DNA of 64,000 bases from the NCBI RefSeq assembly GCF_044324875.1, contig NZ_CP172185.1, one strand, 5' to 3'. This document shows positions 58,068 through 58,898 of the stretch, in pieces. Made by a program: the position numbers and the translations under genes. How positions within the stretch are numbered: the stretch's first letter is position 1; every line of letters begins with the position of its first letter. The notes below the pieces were generated by a model. It made no database searches and was not told where the DNA came from. It saw only the letters and a program-made list of their open reading frames with translations. The DNA is from Escherichia coli (lineage in GTDB: Bacteria > Pseudomonadota > Gammaproteobacteria > Enterobacterales > Enterobacteriaceae).

Positions 58068-58898
58068 TTACGCGGAGCGAGACGCTGTCGCCCCTGCGCG
58101 TGGTGGCAGGGCAAATGCCACCAGCGCCGGGATGAGATAAATAAACCAGACGGCGACTTCGCTGACGCTCGGCGCTTCCTGATAGCCAAAAATCCCTTCC
58201 ATCAGCGTGCCAAACAGCGAGTGAGTTGAGAGCACCGCACTCATATCGAAGGCGATTTCCTGAAAGTGGTTCCACAATCCGGCTTCATGAAATGCGCGAA
58301 TGGCACCAGCCGCCAGCCCTGCGGCGACGAAGAGAATAAACAGGCTGGTCCATTTAAAAAATGCACCAAGATTGAGGCGAATACCGCCCCAGTAGAGCAG
58401 GAAGCCGAGCACCACGGCTGTAGCAAGACCGAGCATTGCACCCAGCGGCGGCCAGATCCCGACATCTTGTTGAAACGCCGCCAGCAGGAAAAAGACCGAC
58501 TCCAGCCCCTCCCTTGCAACGGCAAAAAAGACCATCATCACCAGCGCCCAGCCATGATGATTCCCACGCTGCAATGCGCTATCGACTGCCTGCTCCAGTT
58601 GTACTTTGACGTTGCGCGACACTTTGCGCATCCAGAAAACCATCCAGGTAAGGATCACCACGGCGATCACCGCCACGATACCTTCAAACAGTTCCTGTTC
58701 TTTTTGCGGAAATTCGCCGGTGGTTTCGTTAATGAAGATACCCAAGCCCAGGCACAACGCAGCGGCAAGCAACACGCCAATCCACATCACACCAATCCAT
58801 CGGCCTCGCTGGGTACGCTTAAGATAGCTGGCGATCAAACTGACAATCAGCGCGGCTTCAAGTCCTTCGCGCAACATAATGAGAAATGGAACAAACAT
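58068..58898 (-). CDS. efeU: EfeU, ferrous-iron permease (FTR1 family), apparently intact
   Basis: Single uninterrupted ORF; start placed at Met MFVPFLIMLREGLEAAL; REGLE motifs present. Confidence 0.85.
   Translation of the reverse strand: MFVPFLIMLREGLEAALIVSLIASYLKRTQRGRWIGVMWIGVLLAAALCLGLGIFINETTGEFPQKEQELFEGIVAVIAVVILTWMVFWMRKVSRNVKVQLEQAVDSALQRGNHHGWALVMMVFFAVAREGLESVFFLLAAFQQDVGIWPPLGAMLGLATAVVLGFLLYWGGIRLNLGAFFKWTSLFILFVAAGLAAGAIRAFHEAGLWNHFQEIAFDMSAVLSTHSLFGTLMEGIFGYQEAPSVSEVAVWFIYLIPALVAFALPPRAGATASRSA

Follow-up and report, generated by a model that had tools for sequence, protein, structure and literature searches.

Gene content of the efeUOB locus

The window, which is the whole 64-kb stretch of Escherichia coli DNA that was analysed, carries the genes efeU, efeO, and efeB. 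All three lie on the minus strand and are closely spaced, and efeO and efeB match their family models over the full length. The locus and its neighbours (putA, putP, efeU, efeO, efeB, and phoH) are the same as in K-12 MG1655. The features of the locus are the following.

58068..58898, minus strand: efeU, a 276-aa inner-membrane OFeT/Ftr1-type iron permease (open reading frame, NCBIfam NF041756 and TIGR00145, and a 276/276 aa match to O157:H7)
58857..58871, minus strand: first REXXE motif, REGLE, EfeU residues 10-14 (motif scan)
58793..58794, minus strand: GG dinucleotide at ORF positions 105-106, codons 35/36, with both G kept in the window (alignment with K-12, codon index)
58500..58514, minus strand: second REXXE motif, REGLE, EfeU residues 129-133 (motif scan)
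56883..58010, minus strand: efeO, intact, a 375-aa periplasmic protein (NF007697, 772.7 bits, residues 1-375 of a 375-position model)
55606..56877, minus strand: efeB, intact, a 423-aa Tat-exported DyP-type haem peroxidase/deferrochelatase (TIGR01412, 615 bits)
58958..58976, minus strand: Fur-box-like 19-mer CGTAATGATAATCGCTATC, at -78 to -60 relative to the efeU ATG, a 15/19 match to GATAATGATAATCATTATC

The efeU reading frame extends from an ATG at 58898 to a TAA that ends at 58068, and its 831 nt and 276 codons contain no internal stops. The chance of a 276-codon open frame is approximately 1.8e-6 per frame. The maximal open reading frame reaches a GTG at 58907, which is 9 nt upstream of the ATG; the ATG is the annotated start in all RefSeq genomes inspected. 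An AAGGG Shine-Dalgarno-like motif is located 8-12 nt upstream of the ATG, whereas the alternative GTG would abut this motif directly. EfeU matches the NCBIfam equivalog model NF041756 with 331.2 bits (cutoff 255, E = 4e-99) over profile positions 1-256 of 257, and it matches the EfeU/Ftr1 subfamily model TIGR00145 over its full length with 351.7 bits (cutoff 303.8). The claim of the earlier note that efeU is uninterrupted at 58068-58898 was borne out, as the coordinates are exact, there is no internal stop, and the family match exceeds the cutoff. The minus strand of the gene was missing from that note, which was otherwise accurate.

EfeU is homologous to Ftr1p (PMC9174327, PMC3577903), and it shares with the yeast Ftr1p/Fet3p system (OFeT) the two REXXE motifs, the architecture of a multi-helix membrane protein, and the match to TIGR00145. 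The partner proteins differ, however, in that yeast Fet3p is a multicopper ferroxidase and the partners of EfeU are the cupredoxin/M75 protein EfeO and the haem DyP peroxidase EfeB (PMC9174327). Both REGLE motifs of EfeU sit in hydrophobic stretches. Kyte-Doolittle hydropathy, calculated in 19-residue windows with a threshold of at least 1.6, determined that EfeU has six separate strong segments, while the REGLE-bearing helix at ~117-142 scores under 1.6 owing to its charged residues. Seven transmembrane helices have been reported for the 276-aa EfeU protein (PMC9174327), and the six segments together with the REGLE helix are consistent with this number. The topology of the window protein would, by implication from its sequence identity, be that of the characterised protein.

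A gap of 57 nt separates the efeU stop codon from the start of efeO, and the gap between the efeO stop and the efeB start is 5 nt. EfeO features an HxxE motif, HRLE, at residue 217, and it differs from the O157:H7 protein at 3 amino acids and from the K-12 protein at 4. The twin-arginine motif of EfeB is RRRLL, at residue 14, and the protein keeps D235, H329, and R347, reportedly the distal Asp/Arg and the proximal His of the enzyme (Liu et al. 2011). Comparison with the solved structures of E. coli YcdB/EfeB, 2y4f and 3o72, gave E values of ~1e-261 to 1e-264 (2y4f ~1e-264). The protein differs from EfeB of O157:H7 at 10 amino acids and from that of K-12 at 8, none of which is D235, H329, or R347, and three of the changes, A338P, A150T, and K250Q, are lineage-specific relative to both. 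The literature describes EfeU as an Ftr1p-like permease, EfeB as a Tat-exported haem DyP peroxidase/deferrochelatase, and EfeO as a periplasmic cupredoxin/M75 protein (PMC9174327, PMC3577903), with the roles of the latter two still incompletely understood (PMC9174327).

The K-12 lesion and the frequency of the intact allele

In MG1655 (NC_000913.3) efeU is an annotated pseudogene, b4490, with a length of 830 nt. Alignment of the window gene with K-12 MG1655 efeU revealed one indel and 11 substitutions, which corresponds to 98.6% nucleotide identity. The indel results from the absence in K-12 of one G of the GG dinucleotide at ORF positions 105-106 (window GGATTGGTG, K-12 GGATTGTG). The lost G is assigned to ORF position 106 in codon 36, and it leads to a stop at codon 37, so that the K-12 translation reads ...RGRWIV* and a 36-residue peptide remains in a frame with 8 stops. 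When the G is restored, the K-12 protein is identical to the window EfeU at all residues, and the 11 substitutions are therefore all synonymous, with 0 nonsynonymous. There is no further lesion in K-12 efeU downstream of the deletion; this, given the identity of the repaired protein, suggests that the frameshift is recent.

The literature account of the K-12 efeU frameshift agrees with the 1-bp loss found at codon 36 (PMC3577903, PMC2808357). The earlier note had stated that efeU of K-12 is frameshifted, and both the alignment, with its missing G in codon 36, and the literature confirm this. It had also proposed alignment to K-12 and to intact efeU genes of other strains as the check on its reading, and in these alignments the window shows no frameshift. 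The locus is shared by the two strains, but the gene is broken in K-12 MG1655 by the 1-bp loss and whole in the window.

EfeUOB (YcdNOB) of O157:H7 has been reported as functional by Cao et al. 2007 (Mol Microbiol 65:857, PMID 17627767), as cited in PMC4746246, PMC9174327, and PMC3577903. The EfeU protein of the window is identical at 276/276 residues to EfeU of the O157:H7 strains Sakai and Z1767. These two are the strains that were compared here, and the isolate of Cao et al. 2007 is reportedly EDL933. The window agrees with O157:H7 in the order efeU-efeO-efeB and the lengths of the genes, in the Fur-box-like 19-mer, and in the EfeU protein, and it differs by 12 synonymous and 0 nonsynonymous nucleotide changes in efeU, by 3 amino acids in EfeO, and by 10 amino acids in EfeB. 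The exclusively synonymous differences in efeU (12:0 against O157:H7 and 11:0 against repaired K-12) indicate purifying selection. The codon differences from O157:H7 number 30 synonymous and 3 nonsynonymous in efeO and 42 synonymous and 10 nonsynonymous in efeB, which is the pattern of genes under selection and not of genes in decay. The whole efeUOB region of the window is 100% nucleotide-identical to that of E. coli O158:H23 strain CFIAFB20140388.

A search of complete E. coli genomes found efeU, at a coverage of at least 80%, in 5417 of 5426. The intact 61-mer of the window has an exact match in 3637 genomes and the 60-mer with the K-12 deletion has an exact match in 368; these exact counts stand for allele frequency, and ~1,390 genomes differ from both sequences by 1-3 changes. 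Among the matches to the K-12 deletion that were listed, 60/60 carry lab or K-12-type names (MG1655, W3110-type, C600, DH5alpha, DH1, J53, NCM3722, and similar). The collection is rich in lab strains, and the K-12 allele share of ~7% is an overestimate of its natural frequency. A 1-base deficit in efeU length was present in 3 of 40 evenly spread records, which were MG1655, W3110, and CM2. Intact efeU is the wild type and the species norm, from which K-12 is known to depart.

The earlier note had framed the intact gene as notable. This framing does not hold, since efeU is present in 5417/5426 genomes and the intact form is its normal state. Publications from 2006-2007 onwards already describe the K-12 frameshift as well as the functional, intact gene of O157:H7, Nissle, and most other E. 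coli strains, and an intact efeU in E. coli is an already known and ordinary feature. The observation has little significance beyond correct annotation. Users of K-12 as a reference should nevertheless expect a complete EfeUOB route for ferrous iron at low pH, and for periplasmic haem iron, in wild isolates.

Upstream region and probable function of EfeUOB

The efeUOB operon is Fur-repressed (PMC3577903). The Fur-box-like 19-mer upstream of efeU is the only match of at least 15/19 in the whole 64-kb window, and it is unchanged in K-12 and in O157:H7. The 128 nt directly preceding the efeU ATG show 1 difference from K-12 and 3 differences from O157:H7. A simple sigma-70 scan of 55400-59600 determined no promoter-like site, and an Rfam scan of 55000-62000 determined no regulatory RNA and returned only sub-threshold REP-like naRNA4 matches. 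These matches lie at 55500-55534, downstream of efeB, and at 59102-59138, in the putP-efeU spacer, with 33 and 27 bits against a gathering score of 59.5, and they are taken to be REP-type extragenic palindromes. A search for CpxR tandem pentamers found a single TTTAC-N5-TTTGC site with one mismatch at -52 of efeU. One site with one mismatch is insufficient for a claim of CpxR binding, and this candidate was rejected.

In the distal part of the spacer, approximately 420 nt ahead of the efeU start codon, the window carries 123 bp at 59316-59438 that form an insertion relative to K-12. The insertion directly follows a terminator-like hairpin of putP at 59434-59471. The inserted sequence is a dispersed and unannotated intergenic repeat that 5425/5426 E. 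coli genomes carry, with a median of 3 and a maximum of 9 sites in each. At the RNA level, the repeat and the putP hairpin together form a strong structure (-87.5 kcal/mol, z = -4.8). In O157:H7 the spacer between putP and efeU holds instead a hypothetical gene of 1344 nt, which lies on the opposite strand and is absent from the window and from K-12, whereas the window has a shorter spacer with the 123-bp repeat. The distal upstream region of efeU is therefore highly variable among lineages and the proximal ~128 nt are conserved. The wholly different distal spacer in O157:H7, whose operon is reported to be functional, shows that this part of the spacer is dispensable. A functional operon thus tolerates different distal spacers, and an effect of the 123-bp insertion on efeUOB is unlikely.

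The locus is in all probability an ordinary wild-type efeUOB operon with an intact efeU, as in almost all E. coli strains. The view of the earlier note, that the permease is intact and that EfeUOB is likely to work, is supported by the identity to O157:H7 EfeU, the full-length efeO and efeB genes, and the conserved proximal upstream region, and it is very likely, judging from these sequence comparisons, that the strain expresses efeUOB and transports iron as described in the literature. The intact EfeU, with its two REXXE motifs, would be an inner-membrane permease of seven helices from the Ftr1p-like family of oxidase-dependent iron transporters, and EfeO (cupredoxin/M75) and EfeB (Tat-exported haem DyP peroxidase) would act on the periplasmic side. 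Plentiful iron would lead to repression of the operon by Fur and low pH to its induction, and the system would take up ferrous iron under acidic conditions. A complete EfeU would also allow the use of haem iron that is extracted in the periplasm. The K-12 lineage lost EfeUOB function by the 1-bp deletion in codon 36, and the strain of the window has kept the intact gene. Literature reports state that acid-induced Fe2+ uptake needs a complete EfeU (PMC9174327, PMC3577903) and that EfeUOB of O157:H7, in which efeU is complete, extracts haem iron in the periplasm and supports haem-iron use without the Dpp permease (PMC3577903).

The reading of an ordinary operon was weighed against others. An intact frame could be a sequencing or assembly artefact in a strain that truly carries the K-12-type deletion, since single-base indels are common among assembly errors. 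The site, however, is a GG dinucleotide and not a long homopolymer, the intact 61-mer recurs exactly in 3637 independent genomes, and the 11 further synonymous differences in efeU place the window outside the K-12 lineage, so the probability of an artefact is negligible. It is very unlikely that the frame is intact and the system is nevertheless silent or inactive because of the 123-bp spacer repeat, the neighbouring mobile island, or substitutions in EfeB and EfeO. The insertion relative to K-12, the lineage-specific EfeB changes A338P, A150T, and K250Q, and the lack of a sigma-70 consensus site in the scan would fit such a silent system. The position of the insertion, far upstream and beside the putP terminator-like hairpin, the entirely different distal spacer of O157:H7, and the nearly invariant proximal 128 nt with the Fur-box-like site all speak against it, as do the retained catalytic residues of EfeB, the synonymous excess in efeB and efeO, and the occurrence of an efeUOB region without a single nucleotide difference in another sequenced strain, O158:H23. 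It is extremely unlikely that efeUOB expression is altered by the 123-bp repeat or by the island adjoining phoH, or that EfeB activity is changed by substitutions such as A338P, and there is no positive pointer to altered efeUOB expression or EfeB activity among the findings.

The remaining alternative concerns the task of the system and not its integrity. Its main role could be the extraction of haem iron in the periplasm, with EfeB as deferrochelatase and EfeU as importer, and not the uptake of free Fe2+ at low pH. The Dpp-independent extraction of haem iron by the O157:H7 system (PMC3577903) and the full-length EfeB with its Tat signal are in line with this role, however, it is compatible with Fe2+ uptake, and acid-induced Fe2+ uptake has been ascribed to complete EfeU (PMC9174327, PMC3577903). 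The sequence does not tell the two roles apart, and a main role in haem-iron extraction is considered unlikely.

The mobile island adjoining phoH

A large mobile island occupies ~1-53,700 of the window and adjoins phoH, in the place that the pga operon takes in K-12, O157:H7 Sakai, and the O158:H23 strain. Synteny with the last of these ends at ~54176. The island has no bearing on efeU. The 64-kb window contains no tRNA gene, and the E. coli strains 135, 23CRST013, and GF4 match parts of the island at 99-100% identity. The density of insertion sequences in this left part raised Shigella as a candidate source, which was set aside because several E. coli strains, from collections that cover this species only, match parts of the window at 99-100%. 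Its features are the following, with the strand where it was recorded.

646-1955, 10290-11600, 17605-18914, and 19527-20837 (inverted): full copies of an IS3-family element of ~1310 bp
26959-27753: partial copy of the IS3-family element
3519-5228: lldP
7518-9131: IS66-family transposase
13387-17582 and 21550-24009: type I restriction-modification genes for a 1005-aa HsdR-family protein and an HsdM-like methyltransferase of 819 aa, with a 387-aa ORF that has a weak match to NucS-like proteins
25208-26302, minus strand: group II intron reverse transcriptase ORF
30139-39841, minus strand: raffinose-type cluster of a LamB-type porin, PfkB sugar kinase, GH32 invertase, LacY-type permease, GH36 alpha-galactosidase, and LacI-family regulator
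44687-46510, minus strand: 607-aa ORF with no Pfam match
48750-50396, plus strand: Mu-type transposase
51289-52497, minus strand: tyrosine integrase
52946-53632, minus strand: DUF2726 gene

The sugar cluster at 30139-39841 resembles the raf operon, which is usually plasmid-borne. The five IS3-family copies, four full and one partial, are 100% identical and lie within 28 kb, which points to recent bursts of transposition or to rearrangement within the island. The ~1310-bp size of the element presumably fits IS629. The IS3-family copies are also found between the genes of the type I restriction-modification system, which may be disrupted.
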